Below are positions 4,090-61,569 of a stretch of 64,000 bases of DNA, piece after piece. The DNA comes from a bacterium. Lineage in GTDB: Bacteria; Patescibacteriota; Minisyncoccia; UBA6257; WO2-44-18. The position numbers were made by a program, and so were the translations under genes. The notes below the pieces were generated by a model, which was not told the DNA's origin, searched no databases, and saw only the letters and a program-made list of their open reading frames with translations. Each line of letters starts with the position of its first letter. Positions within the stretch are counted from its first letter, which is position 1. The DNA is taken from positions 31,037-95,036 of the forward strand of contig JAHFLQ010000001.1 in the NCBI GenBank assembly GCA_023244815.1, in the 5' to 3' direction.

Positions 4090-4180
4090 CGCTTGCTGAT
4101 TATGATAAGATAAATTATAATAAAACGCAACTAAAGGGCTTGGCCCAAGAGCGCGAAGCACGATTGGTTGCCAAACCTTT

Positions 4181-4287
4181 ACCCCGTTAGATAGCGGCCA
4201 ATCCATGAATAATCTACCACTTAAGAAACCAGAAAATAATCGTCGTATGGGTAAAAGCTATGTAGCCTTTTCCGCATCTAACGGGGT
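4181..4287. repeat. palindromic repeat element copy A (termini ACCCCGTTAGATAGCGGCCAATC ... CCGCATCTAACGGGGTG)
   Basis: Terminal inverted repeat CCCCGTTAGAT(A)GCGG. The 20-mer CCCGTTAGATAGCGGCCAATC is identical to copy B at 28099-28203. Lies 64 bp upstream of the ftsH start. Confidence 0.6.
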
Positions 4288-4350
4288 GCTCAATTTTGTA
4301 GCTAAATTTTCTTCGCTACAGTTGAGCTCGAAAATTTAGACAAAATTCGC

Positions 4351-6189
4351 ATGAAGAAATCGTTTTTTACAAACATTTTCTGGGCAGTAGTTGGCTTAAT
4401 GACGATTGCGCTTCTTTTTTCCGTTTTGTCCCAGTCGGGCGAGCCATCAGCGCATCTTACCGTCGATGGATTAGTTGCTAAAATTAATGCTGGGCAAGTA
4501 GAGAAAGTTACCGTTAACGGCAACAATCTTTCCATTGTACTGAAGGGGGGAGAGAAGGCGACCGCCAGAAAGGAAACCGAATCCGGCCTCACGGAAACTC
4601 TCAAAAATTATGGCGTAGATCCAAAAGCTCTGCAGGCGGTTTCTTTGGATTTTGAAGACGAGTCTGGGTTGAAATTCTGGCTGGGTATTCTTGTGCCGAC
4701 CATTCTGCCGCTCCTGATTATCGGCGTAATGTTTTGGCTGATTTTTCGGCGGTCGCAATCCGGGGCCTCGCAGGCGTTTACTTTCGGAAAGGCCAACCTG
4801 CGGCTTTTCGGGGCTTTTAAAGACAGGGCGAATTTTAAAGACGTCGCTGGGTTAAAGGAAGCCAAGCAGGAGCTGGAGGAGGTAGTGGATTTTCTTAAAA
4901 ACCCCAAAAAATACCTGGAAATCGGCGCCCGCATTCCCCGCGGTGTTTTGTTAATGGGCCAACCCGGTACTGGAAAAACCTTACTTGCCCGCGCCGTGGC
5001 CGGAGAAGCGAATGTTCCATTTTTCCACATTTCCGCGTCTGAATTCGTGGAAATGTTTGTGGGCGTCGGCGCCTCACGCACCCGAGACGCCTTTATGACC
5101 GCGAAAAAAGCCGCGCCGGCCATTTTATTCATTGATGAAATAGACGCTGTCGGAAGGGAGCGTGGGGCGGGTATCGGCGGCGGACACGATGAACGGGAAC
5201 AAACCCTCAACCAGATTCTAGTGGAAATGGACGGTTTCGAGCGGGATACTCGAGTGATTGTGATTGCCGCTACCAACCGGCCGGATATTTTGGACCGAGC
5301 GCTCCTGCGGCCGGGCCGGTTTGACCGACGGGTCGTTTTGGATCTGCCGGATATTAACGATAGGGAGGCGATTTTGAAAGTCCATGCTCGTGGCAAAGCG
5401 CTGGATAAGAACGTAGATTTGCGCCGCGTGGCGGTGCGGACGCCGGGATTTTCCGGTGCCGATCTGGCTAATCTAATGAACGAAGCGGCAATTCTTGCGG
5501 CTCGCAATAATCGTAAATTAGCCAGCCAGCAAGACCTGCTCGAATCCATCGAAAAGGTGATTCTTGGCCCGGAGCGCAAGGGACGGGCGATTTCGGAAAA
5601 AGAAAAGAAAATTACTGCCTACCACGAAGCTGGCCATGCATTGGTGGCGGTTAGCCTGAAAGACGCCGATCCGGTTCAGAAGGTGTCAATTATCAGCCGC
5701 GGTTCCGCCGGTGGTTATACGCTTAAATTACCCTTTGAAGAGAGTCGTTTACACACCAAATCCCAGTTTGTCGCCGATCTGGCCATGATGTTTGGCGGTT
5801 ATGCTTCGGAAAAAATGGTTTTCGGCGATATTACTACCGGCGCCTCCAACGATCTTAAGCAGGCGTCGGAGTTGGCGCGTCTGTTAGTGACTAAATATGG
5901 CATGAGCGAAAGGCTGGGGCCGCTGACTTTTGGCAAAACCGAGGAGTTGATATTTTTAGGCAAAGAAATTGGTTCCGAGCGGAATTATTCGGAAAAAGTA
6001 GCCGCAAAAATAGATGAAGAAGTTACGGGGATTGTTGAACGCGCTCATCAATTAGCCAAGAAGATTATTAATACTCGCAAGAAGGTCTTGGATGCGATTG
6101 CCCGCGCTTTGATAGAAAAAGAAACGTTGGAGCATGAAGATTTTTACGCGCTCCTGAAGCCTTTTAATTTAAAACCGCTCTCTATTTAG
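4351..6189 (+). CDS. ftsH: ATP-dependent zinc metalloprotease FtsH
   Basis: N-terminal TM, AAA+ Walker A GQPGTGKT, Walker B, second region of homology (SRH), and the zinc motif HEAGHALV. Confidence 0.95.
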
Positions 6190-6261
6190 TCGGCCCGGCA
6201 GGGATCGAACCTGCGACCCGCCGCTTATAAGACGGCTGCTCTGCCACTGAGCTACGGGCCG
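6190..6261 (-). tRNA. tRNA-Ile (anticodon UAU, unusual)
   Basis: Manual fold of the reverse complement: CGGCCCG ta GCTC agtggca GAGC a GCCGT CTTATAA GCGGC gggtc GCAGG TTCGATC CCTGC CGGGCCG A. Anticodon loop is CU-UAU-AA. Confidence 0.7.
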
Positions 6262-9990: not shown

Positions 9991-11319
9991 ATGTTTATGA
10001 CCGCGTGGGATAACGTCAAGGATCGTTATGTGAAAGCCGCTTCTATTTTGCGCTTGGAAGATGAGATTATCAGCGAACTGCTCGGTTTCAAACAGCGTCT
10101 CTCGTTCGACATGATGGCGCAGGTGAATGGGAAGATGGAATCTCTGAAGGTAGTGCGTGTTCGGCACCGCGCGCCGTTGAAAAAGATGGCATACAAGGGA
10201 GGGTTGCGCTTCCTGAAGGGAACGACCCTTTCTTCGATGGAGAGCCATGCCGCGGAGATGTCAGTGAAGTGCTGGATTCACGAATTGCCATATGGCGGCG
10301 CCAAGGGTGGCGTCGATCTTGATCCGAGGCAGTGTTCGCCGAAAGAGCTGGAAGCGATCTCAAAGAAGCTCGTCGACGAACTCGATGAACGCGTGGCAAT
10401 CGGACCAGCACTCGATGTGCCGGCGCCGGATGTCGGCACCAACGCGACCATCATGTTCTGGATGGCCGAACACTACTCTTTCAAACATCCGCGCGAATTT
10501 TTCACTCACGGCGTGGTAACCGGAAAGCCGGTGGTAAGCGGCAATGAATCCATCAACCGATACCTCGGAGGCATTCATGGACGCAAAGAGGCGACTGGCT
10601 TTGGGGTGATGCGCACCCTGTCGGCGTTCCGAAACAAACTTTTTTCTTTTGGCGAAACGCCGACCATGATCATTCAAGGATTTGGAAATGTCGGTTCCCA
10701 TACCGCCAAATTTGCCGAACAGGAAGGGTTCCGGATCATCGGCGTGAGCGACGAGTTCGGAGCGATCCATAATTCCATGGGCATCAGCGTGGCTGATTTG
10801 GAAGCCTATTGCTCGGCAAGTAAACCACGTTCAGTTGTTGGTTACCCACGGGCGGAGGCAGTCGACAAAGAAGAGCTGTTGGAAATGCCATGCGATGTTC
10901 TGGTGCCGGCGGCTCTCGAAGAAGTGATCACTAAGGATAACGCGGCTGCGATTCGCGCCAAGGTCATTCTCGAGGGAGCAAACGGTCCGACAACTCCAGA
11001 AGCGGATGAAATCCTTGAAGATCGCAGAATCGTTGTTGTCCCGGACATCTTGGCCAACAGCTGCGGCGTTACGGTTTCCTACTTTGAGTGGGGGCGGAAT
11101 ACCGACCAAAGCGATCCCCGCATTCCGATGGAAAACGATGCCGGTAAGGTGCTGATGGCCGCCGGTACCATGATGGACGAAGCGAGTGCGGCTGTGCTGA
11201 GACGCGTGGAGAAGTACAAAATTGCTCCACGTCTCGCGGCGTACGTGTTTGCTCTGGAAAAAGCAGAGCTTCTGCGGGTCAGGCGTATGCCCGAGTATGC
11301 GATGAAGCTTTTCGGTTAG
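9991..11319 (+). CDS. Glu/Leu/Phe/Val dehydrogenase family protein (likely glutamate dehydrogenase)
   Basis: GGAKGG motif (ELPYGGAKGGVDLDP), NAD(P)-binding Rossmann GFGNVG. AGAGGAG RBS before the ATG at 9991. The longer ORF from 9850 is unlikely. Confidence 0.85.
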   Translation: MFMTAWDNVKDRYVKAASILRLEDEIISELLGFKQRLSFDMMAQVNGKMESLKVVRVRHRAPLKKMAYKGGLRFLKGTTLSSMESHAAEMSVKCWIHELPYGGAKGGVDLDPRQCSPKELEAISKKLVDELDERVAIGPALDVPAPDVGTNATIMFWMAEHYSFKHPREFFTHGVVTGKPVVSGNESINRYLGGIHGRKEATGFGVMRTLSAFRNKLFSFGETPTMIIQGFGNVGSHTAKFAEQEGFRIIGVSDEFGAIHNSMGISVADLEAYCSASKPRSVVGYPRAEAVDKEELLEMPCDVLVPAALEEVITKDNAAAIRAKVILEGANGPTTPEADEILEDRRIVVVPDILANSCGVTVSYFEWGRNTDQSDPRIPMENDAGKVLMAAGTMMDEASAAVLRRVEKYKIAPRLAAYVFALEKAELLRVRRMPEYAMKLFG

Positions 11320-11328
11320 ACTTTCTTA

Positions 11329-11359
11329 ACCCGCCTTGGCTTGACCAGGCGGGTTTTTA
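11329..11359 (+). terminator. rho-independent terminator
   Basis: CCCGCCttggcttgaCCAGGCGGG followed by TTTTTATTT, after the GDH gene. Confidence 0.7.
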
Positions 11360-11393
11360 TTTGTAATATTGTGACAGAACGTTGGAGGGCCTC

Positions 11394-11627
11394 ATGCAAA
11401 AATTCTCGGTAGTTCTGGAATTAGAAACACCCATGCATAATGGCGGTATCTCGGTCAGTAAATCCGAGATAAGCGTTATTGCGCCAGACGAGAATCGCGC
11501 GTCAGAAATCCTCAAAATCAATTTTGGCGACAGAATCCATAACGATCAAGTTTATGCCCCAATCTGCAAAGGTAAAGCTCCTAACAGTACCATAGAAGCT
11601 ATTTTGATCAGGCCGCTTGGGAAATAA
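11394..11627 (+). CDS. hypothetical small protein (77 aa)
   Basis: GGAGGG RBS 5 nt upstream of the ATG. The ORF is bracketed by terminators on both sides. No recognisable domain. Confidence 0.4.
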   Translation: MQKFSVVLELETPMHNGGISVSKSEISVIAPDENRASEILKINFGDRIHNDQVYAPICKGKAPNSTIEAILIRPLGK

Positions 11628-21397: not shown

Positions 21398-21520
21398 AAT
21401 GCCTCCAGTTAGAGACAATCAAATGATGAATATGCGATTTATTAAAGCAATCACCACTTTTACTAATAACCGCTGTCGGGCGGTTGTGCTACGGTCGTCT
21501 AAGGACGACCGGTCTCTAAC
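21398..21520. repeat. diverged member of the GTTAGA-terminus palindromic repeat family
   Basis: cAGTTAGAGACa ... gGTCTCTAACg flank 105 bp that contains the internal hairpin CGGTCGTCtaagGACGACCG. The right end lies 3 nt before the ATG of the AI-2E gene. Confidence 0.4.
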
Positions 21521-21523
21521 GTA

Positions 21524-25296: not shown

Positions 25297-25313
25297 TTGA
25301 GCGAAGCGAAACC

Positions 25314-25345
25314 CCGTTAGATTGCAGCCTCGATCTAACAGGGTA
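25314..25345. repeat. minimal copy of palindromic repeat family (termini only)
   Basis: CCCCGTTAGAT tgcagcctcg ATCTAACAGGG: the two family termini separated by only 10 bp. Nested inside a second inverted repeat (GAGCGAAGCGAAA / GCTTTGTCGCTTTGCTTC). Lies 58 bp upstream of the leuS start. Confidence 0.5.
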
Positions 25346-25402
25346 GCTCTTAATTCTAGATAAGCTTTGTCGCTTTGCTTCAAATCTTATAGAATTAAGG
25401 CA

Positions 25403-28011: not shown

Positions 28012-28098
28012 CCGCATTGCGCATAGTGCGGCTTTTTTAATTGCTGGCTCAAAATTTTCAATCCGTAGGAGTGGAAAATTTTGCAAGCAGCAATATAA

Positions 28099-28203
28099 TC
28101 CCGTTAGATGCGGGGAAGGTAATATAATTAATTTAATTCGTTATTTGTTAACCAATATACCAATTTAGCCAAAACTTTGATTGGCCGCTATCTAACGGGA
28201 TGC
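28099..28203. repeat. palindromic repeat element copy B (inverted relative to copy A)
   Basis: The reverse complement begins CCCGTTAGATAGCGGCCAATC (20/20 identical to copy A) and ends CCCCGCATCTAACGGGAT. Its AT-rich interior is unrelated to A. Lies 57 bp upstream of glmS. Confidence 0.6.
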
Positions 28204-28209
28204 TCGTAA

Positions 28210-28258
28210 TCTTATAAATTTCGCGCTTGCGTACGCAAGCTAAAATTTATAAGATTAC
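28210..28258 (+). promoter_or_regulatory. large perfect hairpin immediately upstream of glmS start
   Basis: 13-bp arms ATCTTATAAATTT / AAATTTATAAGAT enclose the 16-bp palindrome GCTTGCGTACGCAAGC. Ends 4 nt before the glmS ATG. Confidence 0.35.
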
Positions 28259-28261
28259 GGC

Positions 28262-36287: not shown

Positions 36288-36411
36288 TTGTAGTGCGCCC
36301 TGCGGGAAATCTCACTCGGCGCTTCGCGCCTCTTTAAAACCCAGCGGTTTTAATGTTTCCGCCACGGGAAAACTACCGTTTTCCCGACCCCTTTCCCGTT
36401 CGATCCCAGCA
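36288..36411. repeat. partial duplications of tRNA-Val 3' end
   Basis: TGCGCCCTGCggg (36289-36301) is a direct repeat of the tRNA-Val 3' end (36460-36471). CGTTCGATCCCAGCAGG (36395-36411) is a 17-bp inverted repeat of 36465-36481. The interval contains stable hairpins. Confidence 0.4.
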
Positions 36412-36427
36412 GGAAATACATAGAAAT

Positions 36428-36459: not shown

Positions 36460-36531
36460 TGCGCCCTGCTGGGATCGAACCAGCGGCCTTTTCAATGTCA
36501 ATGAAACGCTCTACCACTGAGCTAAGGGCGC
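36460..36531 (-). tRNA. tRNA-Val (anticodon GAC)
   Basis: Reverse complement: GCGCCCT ta GCTC agtggta GAGC g TTTCA TTGACAT TGAAA aggcc GCTGG TTCGATC CCAGC AGGGCGC A. Confidence 0.85.
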
Positions 36532-37377: not shown

Positions 37378-37451
37378 TTTTTAAGATGAACTACTAATAA
37401 TTTAAGCGATTTTATAGTAAAATGGAAGAGTTATGCCCGGTGCTACAACTT

Positions 37452-37559
37452 CGACACTATTCTTTTTTGAAGTTCGCGCGAGGCATGCTATTTTAATCAA
37501 AATCATGAAAAGTCGCTTATTCCGGCGAGTTGGCGCCAACTCGCAGTCGAAGTTGTAGC
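37452..37559 (+). promoter_or_regulatory. nested palindromes upstream of parB (candidate centromere/operator)
   Basis: GCTACAACTTCGAC (37452-37465) and GTCGAAGTTGTAGC (37546-37559) form a 14-bp inverted repeat. It encloses the perfect 20-bp palindrome GCGAGTTGGCGCCAACTCGC (37525-37544). Ends 9 nt before the parB ATG. Confidence 0.35.
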
Positions 37560-37567
37560 AACCGGGT

Positions 37568-38440
37568 ATGCAGGAACACGATCTGCCTGTTCAAGGACCG
37601 GTATTCTTAATAGAAGTAGATAAGATATTGCCAAACCCGCAGCAACCGCGGCGGGATTTTGATGAAAATGCCTTGAAAGAGCTGGCGGCGTCCATCAGGG
37701 AATTCGGTATTCTCCAGCCGATTGTGGTTACCAAACTGGAAGAGATAAAAGAAGCCGGAACCGATGTTAAATATATTCTTGTTGCCGGTGAACGGCGGTG
37801 GCGGGCGGCTCAAATGGTAGGAATGGAACGCATTCCAGCGGTTATTAGAAGCGTGAATCTTGCCAAGGACCGTTTGGAGCTGGCGATTATTGAGAACGTT
37901 CAGCGGGAAAACTTAAACGCAATAGAAGCGGCGCGGGCCTACGCGAGACTTGCCGATGAATTTGGACTGACGCAGAGGGAAGTAGCCGCGCGTCTCGGTA
38001 AGAGTCGAGAAGTCATTGCTAACACCATCCGGCTTCTCAGTCTGCCAACAGCAATTCAGGATGCCATCGCGAAGAGCCAAATCAGTGAGAGCCAGGGGCG
38101 GCTTTTGTTGACCGTGCCTGATCTTGCTCAGCAACAGGCCTTATTTGAAGATCTTTTGCGCAGCACAATGAGCGTGCGTGAGTTACGAAGCCGTATCCAG
38201 TCCATCCAAAAACCGGCGCAGAGTCCATCTGCTATTCCTGTTATCAGCGTTGTTGATTCGGAAACGCTTTCTCTGCAGCGCGAGCTTGAAGGAGCGCTCG
38301 GCGCTCCCGTAAAAGTGGAGCATGCCGGTGAAACCGGAAAACTAATTATCACTTTTTATTCGCCGGAGGAGTTGAAGGGTATTGTCGACCGTCTGAAAGG
38401 CACTACACAAACCGATAGCTTGCCTCCCTTATCTCTTTAA
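37568..38440 (+). CDS. parB: chromosome partitioning protein ParB/Spo0J
   Basis: ParB box motifs (ILPNPQQPRRDFDE, GERRWRAA), HTH, C-terminal dimerisation region. No parA is adjacent. Confidence 0.85.
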   Translation: MQEHDLPVQGPVFLIEVDKILPNPQQPRRDFDENALKELAASIREFGILQPIVVTKLEEIKEAGTDVKYILVAGERRWRAAQMVGMERIPAVIRSVNLAKDRLELAIIENVQRENLNAIEAARAYARLADEFGLTQREVAARLGKSREVIANTIRLLSLPTAIQDAIAKSQISESQGRLLLTVPDLAQQQALFEDLLRSTMSVRELRSRIQSIQKPAQSPSAIPVISVVDSETLSLQRELEGALGAPVKVEHAGETGKLIITFYSPEELKGIVDRLKGTTQTDSLPPLSL

Positions 38441-43250: not shown

Positions 43251-43369
43251 CCCGTTAGAAATTTATATTATAATTTATTGATTATTGTGTCCGCCGATTT
43301 TCCTTGAAAGAGTCTTGCCCGTAGAAATATTTTACTTTTAAAATTCCTAATGGGATTCATTTTTTATTT

Positions 43370-60929: not shown

Positions 60930-61184
60930 TTACCCCGTTAGATAGTTATTTAATCGACTCTTGATGTATCGTTTGCCCCAAGCGGTTTTTAGATATTTCT
61001 CGCGATGTGTTGCGTCCTGCTGATTCGCGCACGCTTCGAAATAAACGAGCTTAACGGGCAAACGATTCTTCGTGGACACAACCATACCATTGTTATGCAA
61101 ATTCAGAAGTTGTTTAAGATCGTGCGTGTAGCCGGTATAAAACTGGCGATCTTTCTTACTTTGTAGAATATATGTGTAATGCAT
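60930..61184 (-). CDS. GIY-YIG nuclease superfamily protein (YhbQ/UPF0213-like, 84 aa)
   Basis: MHYTYILQSKKDRQFYTGYTHDLKQLLNLHNNG...LVYFEA carries the GIY-YIG signature. The stop codon directly abuts the gyrA ATG. The CDS lies inside a repeat-family element. Confidence 0.7.
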   Translation of the reverse strand: MHYTYILQSKKDRQFYTGYTHDLKQLLNLHNNGMVVSTKNRLPVKLVYFEACANQQDATHREKYLKTAWGKRYIKSRLNNYLTG

Positions 61185-61200
61185 AGTATCTAACGGGGTG
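60933..61200. mobile_element. repeat-family element carrying the GIY-YIG gene (candidate autonomous or cargo-carrying copy)
   Basis: Left end TTACCCCGTTAGATAG (60933-60948) and right end ATCTAACGGGGTG (61188-61200) match the termini of elements A and B. The left terminus encodes the last codons of the GIY-YIG gene (Y-L-T-G-stop). Confidence 0.4.
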
Positions 61201-61203
61201 AAT

Positions 61204-61569
61204 CTAGTGAAGTTTCGTCGGTGAAATTGGTGCCAGTCCTTCCAGCACGAAATTCTGCTCTGAGTTTTCAATAACGATGTTATTTTGAGTGGAAATTTTC
61301 GCGTTAATTAACGCCGCCACCTTATCATAAATGATTTTCGCTCCAGCGCTGAAGATCGCGAAAAATCCTGTAGTATTATTTTCGGCATTTTCCACCGCCA
61401 CGACGTCTGAAGGGGGAGTAACCGTCGCTACAGTCAGCTTCATATATGTAAGCCAGAGCGCGACTACAACGACCATCGAGAGCCCGCTCAAAACTACCAG
61501 CCAGACTTTTTTGGCGGACTCGTCGGAGTTTTGGATTTTGAGGACGAAGTTTTTTACCATTTTTAACAT
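61204..61569 (-). CDS. hypothetical membrane-anchored protein
   Basis: One TM (WLVVLSGLSMVVVVALWL), 121 aa, no domain assignment. Confidence 0.45.
   Translation of the reverse strand: MLKMVKNFVLKIQNSDESAKKVWLVVLSGLSMVVVVALWLTYMKLTVATVTPPSDVVAVENAENNTTGFFAIFSAGAKIIYDKVAALINAKISTQNNIVIENSEQNFVLEGLAPISPTKLH

Follow-up and report, generated by a model that had tools for sequence, protein, structure and literature searches.

Introduction

The Ssn nucleases were first reported in 2025. SsnA of Neisseria meningitidis, a single-domain GIY-YIG protein of 94 amino acids (aa), binds the NTS hairpin repeat and cuts single-stranded DNA (ssDNA) just upstream of it, with no action on double-stranded DNA or RNA and no RNA binding, and cleavage also works with a hairpin built from two oligonucleotides (Chenal et al. 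2025, Nat Commun; PMC11893778). SsnA homologues (CDD cd10448) occur in many phyla, each beside its own version of the hairpin (SRM) on both flanks, and these versions reach up to hundreds of mostly intergenic copies; the arrangement NTS-ssnA-NTS was likened to an insertion sequence and compared with REP/RAYT, and the authors could only speculate that it is, or was, a mobile element (PMC11893778). Bacteria of the candidate phyla radiation (CPR) are absent from the main text of that paper (PMC11893778). Here, we analyzed 64,000 nucleotides of contig JAHFLQ010000001.1 (positions 31,037 to 95,036 of the forward strand) from a CPR bacterium of the Patescibacteriota; this whole stretch is hereafter called the window. 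It contains six elements built from a conserved 16-nt arm, one of which encloses the gene for an 84-aa GIY-YIG nuclease, and the arms and the nuclease gene probably form a mobile unit.

The elements resemble the Ssn/NTS-SRM systems in several respects. The nuclease is a small, single-domain GIY-YIG protein with no extra DNA-binding domain (approximately 85–95 aa in Ssn systems and 84 aa here), inverted repeats that can fold into a hairpin stand on both sides of its gene, although here the two sides together make up a single hairpin, the repeat recurs at many scattered sites that are mostly intergenic and often lie by important genes (here six elements in 64 kb), and the repeat variants differ by lineage, which is seen here as arm covariation. 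The base of the stem is similar as well, being GTCATTCCCGCG in NTS, CTCATCCCTGTG in Sinorhizobium meliloti, and TTCACCCCGTTAG in the window family. On the other hand, the gene here usually lies inside one split palindrome with a coding 3' arm, whereas the Ssn gene lies between two complete hairpins; the stem is 15–17 bp long rather than approximately 8–9; the interiors are arbitrary, ranging from 6 nt to more than 100 nt and including tRNA genes; and comparative evidence of insertion at stop/start junctions is new here. By analogy, the 84-aa nuclease appears to be related to the Ssn family of site-specific ssDNA nucleases, and the system is best classed as an Ssn-type variant with a gene-in-palindrome layout, a new repeat sequence, a CPR host, and comparative evidence of mobility. 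Nuclease/hairpin systems are thereby extended to the CPR, whose tiny, gene-dense genomes otherwise hold little repetitive DNA, and the long-stem hairpin/enzyme pair is a new candidate for the ssDNA-cutting tools that have been proposed for the Ssn family.

Other repeat systems share some of these features. REP/BIME sequences with their RAYT enzymes (Y1 HUH), together with the IS200/IS605 elements that move by "peel and paste", are also short dispersed extragenic palindromes with a cognate enzyme gene flanked by inverted repeats, a presumed ssDNA hairpin substrate, no target-site duplication, and hairpin mosaics. They differ in that the enzyme here is a GIY-YIG hydrolytic nuclease and not an HUH tyrosine transposase with covalent intermediates, and in that no conserved target tetra- or pentanucleotide lies at the ends here; the gene flanked by the repeats is GIY-YIG, and the surroundings of the elements examined showed no HUH gene. 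The dRS3/NIME and Correia (NEMIS) repeats of Neisseria likewise have inverted repeats that bracket variable 50–150-bp segments by genes, in 5' leaders where transcript effects are possible, but their sequence is unrelated, and the arms here bracket a nuclease gene too. Correia elements have TA duplications and 26-bp terminal inverted repeats. Integron attC sites, which function as folded single strands, are likewise imperfect palindromes that vary in length, and GTTAGAT fits GTTRRRY as ATCTAAC fits RYYYAAC. An earlier note on this DNA, made from the sequence alone, had remarked on the resemblance to attC and on the reversed order of the cores; the order is indeed reversed (GTTAGAT...ATCTAAC on both strands), and the arms form near-perfect stems without extrahelical bases, so a reading as attC is not supported. 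In attC, strand choice is defined by extrahelical bases. Neither an integron integrase nor attI was seen among the called genes beside the loci with gene tables, the window and most loci being unscreened. A literature search for the repeat sequence gave matches that appear to be due to chance, in papers judged by their titles to be unrelated.

Repeats in the window

The motif CCCGTTAGAT or its complement occurs exactly seven times in the window (4183+, 4276-, 25313+, 28100+, 28190-, 60934+, and 61188-), against 0.08 occurrences expected, and none of 100 dinucleotide shuffles attained seven. The distribution is thus non-random. A one-mismatch search added 25333- and 43251+, as well as a match at 36395 that sits in a tRNA-like fragment and is probably due to chance. 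Some of the positions in the earlier note were off by 1–2 nt (4274 is 4276, 25335 is 25333, and 28191 is 28190). The arms in the window always form plus-then-minus pairs, in hairpin orientation. The motifs CCCCGTTAGAT and ATCTAACGGGG are the two arms, 16 nt each, of one palindrome. The repeat unit is this 16-nt arm, TT(C/T)ACCCCGTTAGATA, also written TTYACCCCGTTAGATA. In total, the window holds a 273-bp cassette with the 84-aa GIY-YIG gene, four gene-less copies (105–120 bp), and one minimal hairpin, as follows (z is the z-score of the fold).

60930–61202, minus strand: complete cassette; 5' arm TTCACCCCGTTAGATA (61202–61187), 1 nt, GIY-YIG open reading frame (ORF), 3' arm TATCTAACGGGGTAA (60944–60930)
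60930–61184, minus strand: ssn-like gene encoding the single-domain GIY-YIG nuclease of 84 aa; the 3' arm consists of its final codons, tat cta acg ggg taa
4178–4290: copy A, in the ftsH 5' leader; arms TTTACCCCGTTAGATA (4178–4193) and ATCTAACGGGGT (4276–4287)
28096–28203: copy B, in the glmS leader; arms CCCGTTAGAT (28100–28109) and ATCTAACGGG (28190–28199)
25308–25347: minimal hairpin, upstream of leuS; CCCCGTTAGAT, 10-nt loop, ATCTAACAGGGT; z = -3.5
21405–21523: diverged gene-less copy, flush with the ATG of the AI-2E transporter gene (21524); arms CCAGTTAGAGAC and GTCTCTAACGTA; z = -5.2
43251–43355: probable decayed copy at the topA start; arm CCCGTTAGAA (43251–43260) and degenerate partner TTCCTAATGGG (43344–43354), 83 nt off

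The cassette sits exactly between the stop codon of a 121-aa gene (61204–61206) and the gyrA ATG (60929), with its TAA directly abutting that ATG, and it matches the DNA profile of cassettes with E = 1e-68. That one copy carries a GIY-YIG gene had been recognized from the sequence, and the enclosed 84-aa protein matches the Pfam GIY-YIG domain (PF01541) over residues 1–70 with E = 5e-13 and has no further domain. The stem of copy A is lengthened by GCGG/CCGC around a unique 83-nt interior, and its ssDNA fold closes the arms (z = -4.6), as does that of copy B (z = -3.7), which has a unique, AT-rich interior of 80 nt. The earlier description proved correct in that this is a dispersed family whose inverted termini are conserved while the interiors vary. 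A and B have a perfect 21-mer in common at one end, match in 22 of 27 nt at the opposite end, and run in opposite orientations, and their interiors cannot be aligned. Their common subterminal 21-mer, despite the unrelated interiors, is unexplained. The leuS copy is, as had been noticed, reduced to the two termini 10 nt apart, and the diverged motif pair GTTAGAGAC/GTCTCTAAC that had been reported is present at 21408–21520. Folding as ssDNA, proposed as a check, closes a stem between the arms in A, B, leuS, and AI-2E (z = -3.5 to -5.2). At topA, only the motif at 43251 had been listed, as a partial copy, while its partner and the additional hairpins described below (Y hairpins) had been overlooked. 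The arm of this copy overlaps the topA start codon by one base (minus strand, ATG 43250–43248), and its arms now lack a stable fold (z = 0.3).

The distances between the elements and the start codons had also been described correctly and measure 59–64 nt for ftsH, leuS, and glmS and 0–3 nt for topA, gyrA, and AI-2E. All the copies are intergenic, as claimed, save that the 3' arm of the cassette forms the last four codons and the stop codon of the GIY-YIG ORF. Homology searches confirmed the gene names given in the earlier note, namely FtsH, LeuS, GlmS, TopA, GyrA, the AI-2E transporter, and the GIY-YIG protein, and the best-named homologues of LeuS and FtsH were from Patescibacteria (Harrisonbacteria and Paceibacterota), which assigns the window to a CPR bacterium. 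The source contig corresponds to ENA ERZ27279942 k141_3726383, with a length of 98.9 kb. The window elements occupy the leaders of the essential genes ftsH, leuS, glmS, gyrA, and topA. Palindromic sites upstream of several essential genes could be read as operators of a shared transcription factor or as a promoter consensus for ftsH, leuS, glmS, topA, and gyrA, which the earlier note had offered as an alternative. This is extremely improbable, considering that the elements precede only six of the approximately 60 genes in the window, that the orthologous promoters in relatives lack the sites, that the two arms may be as little as 6 nt or more than 250 nt apart, and that copies in other genomes interrupt a coding sequence (L140) and bracket tRNA genes.

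Linkage of the arms to the nuclease gene across phyla

More than 3000 homologues of the 84-aa protein were found, of which the best 120 were 73–85% identical to it, with 100% for the source contig's own copy. The invariant columns in an alignment of 20 sequences include Y3, Y5, Y16, G18, Y19, H30, N31, R41, and E50. Most of these 20 proteins end in ...NYLTG, and the 3' arm encodes the last residues (YLTG*). The protein has no NCBIfam match. A scan of 185,579 species genomes for the nuclease yielded 80 loci, with identities of 62–82%, in the CPR, Bacteroidota, Planctomycetota, Verrucomicrobiota, Elusimicrobiota, Ignavibacteria, Cloacimonadota, and others; this spread across phyla at such identities suggests horizontal transfer. 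At most of the 80 loci, a 5' arm lies 0–36 nt upstream of the ORF, and the ORF ends in the 3' arm; 53 arm pairs spaced 230–300 nt apart were counted in 827 kb. The arms bracket the GIY-YIG ORF in approximately 70 genomes of many phyla and were found in at least 120 metagenome contigs, so the family is far from confined to the window, an outcome that the earlier note had named as one that would refute it. The causal tie of the repeats to the GIY-YIG gene, which the earlier note did not draw, is the key to this family.

The two arms co-vary among lineages, in the pairs CCCCGTGAGATA/TATCTCACGGGG, CCCTGTGTAATA/TATTACACAGGG, CCCTGTTAAATAA/TTATTTAACAGGG, CCCTGTCAAATAA/TTATTTGACRGGG, and CCCTGTGAAATAA/TTATTTCACAGGG. 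Among 55 distinct cassettes, 8 of 17 stem pairs were altered on both sides, and 50 cells changed in this way, against 21 in column shuffles (0 of 500 reached 50) and 1–6 in slid registers; two caveats on these counts are that the 5' arm was taken to be the best complement in a 60-nt stretch and that the sequences share a common descent. Changes in the coding-side arm are mostly synonymous (CTA/TTA/TTG/CTC for Leu and ACG/ACA for Thr) and are matched in the non-coding 5' arm. Because the non-coding arm tracks silent changes in the gene, the sequence comparison points to selection for arm pairing rather than for the protein sequence. The repeat and the 3' end of the gene thus appear to co-evolve as one structure. 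Whether dispersed copies co-evolve with the variant arms was also considered, and this was set aside because the genomes with variant arms have no extra copies near the gene that could be compared.

The layout is not the same everywhere. A paralogous GIY-YIG gene in L002 stands between two complete hairpins of the arm family, and both layouts, the gene in a split palindrome and the gene between complete hairpins, therefore exist. The family profile aligns with a small GIY-YIG protein of S. meliloti with an hhalign probability of 96.8% and 39% identity. The S. meliloti gene (L230, pSymB, CP090106.1, 1664101–1665513) encodes 96 aa and has complete dRS3/NTS-like hairpins on both sides, ATTCCTGTG-acagg-CACAGGAAT and CATCCCTGTG-ctcgt-CACAGGGATG, which resemble those of Neisseria yet also fail the published SRM pattern.

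Filled and empty sites

Base-precise filled and empty sites provide evidence that the nuclease-plus-hairpin unit moves, and they reveal where it lands. In L016, whose GyrA is 88% identical and whose nuclease is 80% identical to those of the window, the gene order is LactB-ssn-120aa-gyrA, whereas it is LactB-121aa-ssn-gyrA in the window (LactB is a Lactamase_B gene). The two are reciprocal empty sites, with TAA-cc-ATG in L016 against TAG-at-(TCACCCCGTTAGATACT ATG ... GGGGTAA)-ATG in the window. Relatives with LeuS 78–83% identical keep the order M16, AI-2E, an aminoacyl-tRNA synthetase, TatD, a small gene, leuS, a small gene, and glmS but have no arms, and their gaps at AI-2E, leuS, and glmS are 29/66, 33–59, and 51–68 nt, compared with 148, 122, and 250 nt in the window. 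The leuS and glmS elements are absent in L099, L101, and L102. At AI-2E, L099 has the left flank atatagttatatatagg in common with the window and reaches the ATG approximately 10 nt further on, whereas the window has approximately 119 extra nt up to the ATG. Copy A is absent from the ftsH leader in L231 and L233: the relatives have a divergent small gene and a promoter block up to ...gcaact, with the ATG 9–15 nt later, whereas the window has a 215-nt block consisting of an X hairpin (described below), copy A, and a Y hairpin. In L140 (1102–1553), three copies with near-identical interiors lie inside 450 nt of one gene, and their removal in silico restores an ORF of 470–478 aa with an AlbA_2 domain at the N-terminus and a helix-turn-helix at the C-terminus. 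No target-site duplication was found at gyrA/L016, AI-2E/L099, ftsH/L231, or the three L140 copies.

The comparison of orthologous loci, which had been proposed as a check, thus revealed elements missing at the relatives' ftsH, AI-2E, leuS, and glmS sites and a cassette at a neighboring junction in L016, and the elements are therefore considered mobile. Judging from these alignments, they insert between a stop codon and the next ATG, at different junctions, and leave no target duplication.

The same sites bear on two alternatives. In the first, homing, a free-standing nuclease gene sits amid its own palindromic target; the nuclease cuts empty minimal hairpins, which pre-exist for some other reason, and repair from an occupied copy proceeds via the 16-nt arms. 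GIY-YIG homing endonucleases are an established class, and the genes of free-standing ones (phage T4 Seg, I-TevI family) are likewise selfish genes that lie between host genes without disruption. Minimal hairpins with loops of 6–10 nt are also common, accounting for 22 of 116 paired arms in a sample that was not selected for the gene, the gene parts the half-sites by approximately 250 nt, which would shield occupied sites, and no target-site duplication was seen. However, the two well-resolved empty sites (TAA-cc-ATG in L016 and the site before AI-2E in L099) hold no hairpin, and insertion therefore needs no pre-existing palindrome. Homing also leaves the origin of hairpins with arbitrary interiors or tRNA genes unaccounted for, and a homology of 16 nt is very short for recombinational repair. 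Seg and I-TevI have separate DNA-binding domains and cut double-stranded DNA, and to our knowledge, they are not bounded by inverted repeats and generate no dispersed gene-less repeats. Homing is thus an unlikely explanation.

In the second alternative, the elements are ordinary miniature inverted-repeat transposable elements (MITEs) moved in trans by a conventional transposase encoded elsewhere, and the GIY-YIG gene is captured cargo. The terminal inverted repeats (16-nt arms with sharp ends), the size of approximately 40–120 bp, the multiple copies per genome, and the local clusters with identical interiors, as in L140, are all those of MITEs, and the initial description as MITE-like was right in that the elements are dispersed and inserted relative to orthologous sites. 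It fails in that no filled/empty comparison revealed the target-site duplication of a classical MITE, the interiors are arbitrary, the protein-coding gene found again and again between the arms is that of the GIY-YIG nuclease, and no transposase was seen there, although ten interiors of gene size in the unselected sample were not inspected. Furthermore, in approximately 70 genomes of many phyla, the GIY-YIG coding sequence includes the 3' arm as an integral part that co-varies, which repeated capture cannot explain. Passive mobilization of this kind is very unlikely.

Arm survey, interiors, and placement

The information content of 490 distinct arms, part of which were chosen by the exact 16-mer, is high at exactly 16 positions and falls to background one base outside and one base inside, and no flanking target motif lies next to the arm ends. 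The unit is thus sharply bounded. The metagenomes were scanned with the 16-mer alone, without selection for the gene, and among the 120 contigs listed, 116 of 133 arms had a downstream partner. The interiors of the 116 pairs measured 5–10 nt in 22 pairs, 20–60 nt in 39, 60–80 nt in 34 (approximately 14 of which come from one recurrent mosaic), 80–130 nt in 8, 130–230 nt in 3, and 230–270 nt, which is gene-sized, in 10. Two interiors are complete tRNA genes (tRNA-Val CAC at L170 494–586 and tRNA-Ala CGC at L150 9775–9880), which lie 4–5 nt inside the arms and look as if they were element cargo. Many gene-less copies retain GGGGTAAAT at one end, which corresponds to the stop codon of the nuclease gene and stands in place of the TGAA that would pair perfectly, and this hints that they descend from gene cassettes. 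Copies A and B were also considered as internally deleted nuclease genes, on the basis of a 20-nt colinear match of A to the 5' end of the gene (p approximately 0.04) and an in-frame reading, which the cassette profile did not confirm. A phage origin was rejected because the 16-nt arm occurs in only seven viral contigs.

The arms hold stop codons in both directions, with TAG in the 5' arm and TAA or TGA after the 3' arm, and upstream ORFs sometimes end in the 5' arm, as do AbiEi in L002 and the split gene in L140. Of 85 cassettes, 57 lie within 40 nt after a co-directional stop codon. A co-directional ORF starts -4 to +12 nt from the cassette stop in 34 of the 85, seven of them flush; nine of the 34 starts are GTG readings that overlap the TGA stop and may be spurious. 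In the broad sample, closeness to a start codon is enriched only approximately 2-fold. A strict rule of placement just before start codons was dropped in view of this enrichment and of the 34 of 85 cassettes, and operon junctions are a frequent, not obligatory, location.

This placement could suggest that the arms act at the RNA level, pairing in transcripts as a stem for processing, stability, or translation coupling, with the nuclease gene as a passenger; the stem would bring the upstream stop and the downstream start together, or GGGG in the 3' arm would serve as a Shine-Dalgarno-like sequence. Every window copy is located at an operon junction or in a leader that is transcribed, three directly adjoin an ATG, and in three others a hairpin bridges the distance to the ATG with 2–8 nt left unpaired; the arms tightly bracket tRNA genes, and the 34 cassettes with a nearby start would fit as well. 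There is also a precedent in the Correia/NEMIS stems of Neisseria, which are cleaved in mRNA by RNase III. On the other hand, mismatches in the core stem reveal no preference for G.U on the sense strand (14 G.T against 9 A.C), copies also split a coding gene (L140), and the start-codon enrichment in the broad sample is low. Close relatives have the same leaders but not the elements, which are therefore not regulators under conservation. SsnA of Neisseria, moreover, does not bind RNA (PMC11893778). A primary role in RNA is quite unlikely, and an RNA effect may be a secondary consequence.

Cassettes were also observed in a toxin–antitoxin context. In L001–L010 (e.g., L002 2384–3962), the nuclease cassette splits an AbiEi/AbiEii toxin–antitoxin operon; in L002, the TAG of the 5' arm now terminates AbiEi, while the ORF of the nuclease runs four more codons and overlaps the AbiEii ATG. 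The gene content of sibling contigs in this group diverges right after a minimal hairpin, as if hairpins marked recombination junctions. Elsewhere, arms with a conserved 69-nt interior are part of a longer conserved non-coding mosaic of several hairpins (...gatggtttcg...agatgcaaggcgcgcaaaaactgaggagtgaagcgcac...), found in L127 (approximately 5300–5660 and 11040–11400, minus strand), L147, L111, L122, L123, L137, L152, L153, L162, and L205. This mosaic occurs more than once per contig and in many metagenomes, and its L127 and L147 examples match no Rfam family.

Proposed mechanism

With moderate confidence, we interpret the arms as the cognate hairpin of the encoded nuclease and the nuclease plus arms as a mobile unit with non-autonomous derivatives. 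Binding and cutting of the arms by the nuclease, an ssDNA substrate, and nuclease-driven mobility are predictions from the Ssn analogy. When DNA becomes single-stranded during replication, repair, or DNA uptake, the arms would pair into a 15–17-bp stem. The nuclease would recognize this stem as its cognate hairpin and, following the Ssn precedent, cut beside it, after which host processing of the break could spread or remove arm-bounded segments. The gene-less copies A, B, leuS, AI-2E, and topA would then be non-autonomous members that need the nuclease in trans. New copies would settle where the harm is small in a gene-dense genome, typically at stop-to-start junctions, and host repair or replication is presumably involved in insertion, given a hydrolytic nuclease.

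Several observations weigh against this interpretation. The enzymes of the GIY-YIG superfamily are hydrolytic nucleases, which leaves the insertion of a segment unaccounted for. The SRM pattern HGTCWY..YYVSBRH..WNVSBRG..RNCYNB has no match in the window, and the consensus hairpins of the family fail it, whereas NTS controls match. The nearest solved structures in the PDB are UPF0213 proteins (E = 2e-5). In an nhmmer search with the DNA profile of 84 cassettes, A and B matched in the arms only, and their interiors had no significant similarity to the gene; an origin of A and B from the cassette by deletion is therefore unsupported. The lineages with variant arms have no more arm copies within approximately 12 kb of the gene, and dispersal is therefore not a universal property. 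Finally, the cassette region is 100% identical in four contigs from one population, with no ongoing polymorphism.

A more far-reaching proposal is that the 273-bp unit is a fully autonomous mobile element that moves as an ssDNA hairpin intermediate by means of a hydrolytic nuclease and host repair, inserts seamlessly between stop and start codons without duplication, mobilizes in trans any DNA between arms, including tRNA genes, and has spread horizontally over many phyla. Taken jointly, these claims are doubtful. If true, the autonomous unit, with two 16-nt arms and an 84-aa ORF, would be among the smallest mobile elements known, and the X and Y hairpins would be repair scars of nuclease cuts on either strand.

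Adjoining hairpins and other features of the window

The following hairpins adjoin the elements at ftsH, leuS, and glmS and are absent in relatives.

4133–4180: X hairpin, directly adjacent to the left arm of copy A; unique; weak fold, z = -1.4
4292–4347: Y hairpin, in the space that separates the ftsH ATG (4351) from the right arm of copy A; unique; z = -3.35
25348–25401: Y hairpin, in the space that separates the leuS ATG (25403) from the minimal hairpin; unique; z = -5.0
28041–28093: X hairpin, left of copy B; unique; z = -5.1
28202–28261: Y hairpin, in the space that separates the glmS ATG (28262) from copy B; perfect stem of 17 bp; z = -7.1

The Y hairpins at ftsH, leuS, and glmS are long and near-perfect, all start with GGGRT(A)GCTC, and stop 0–3 nt short of the ATG. 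Neither the X and Y hairpins nor the interiors have a second copy in the 1.64 Mb searched, and a reading of them as other repeat families was rejected. The Y hairpins were also considered as inverted duplications of the native 5' untranslated region, and this was rejected because their 3' halves are unlike the untranslated regions of relatives (p = 0.16–0.9). That the X and Y hairpins are fold-back repair scars of cuts on either strand beside the palindrome is speculation.

A second, unrelated palindrome at 37436–37565 (CCCGGTGCTACAACTTCGAC ... GTCGAAGTTGTAGCAACCGG) has 20-nt arms that are 90% complementary and 90 nt apart. It ends 2 nt before the ATG at 37568, a placement like that of the main family, and has no other copy in the sequence searched. 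Part of tRNA-Val (GTTCGATCCCAGCAGG; 36398–36413 and 36465–36480) is repeated in inverted orientation, 16 nt without a mismatch, at a distance of 51 nt from the gene, and this copy may be an integration scar; it accounts for the one-mismatch motif match at 36395. An Rfam scan of the window detected tRNAs only. At ftsH, the public gene call gives a protein of 596 aa that starts 16 codons downstream of 4351; since the FtsH proteins of relatives are 611–613 aa long, we take the ATG at 4351, directly after the Y hairpin, as the start. Just downstream of ftsH lies a tRNA-Ile gene with the anticodon TAT (UAU; 6189–6261), a tRNA that is uncommon in bacteria, and its position is kept in three relatives (L231 4365–4437, L232 4348–4421, and L233 4449–4523).

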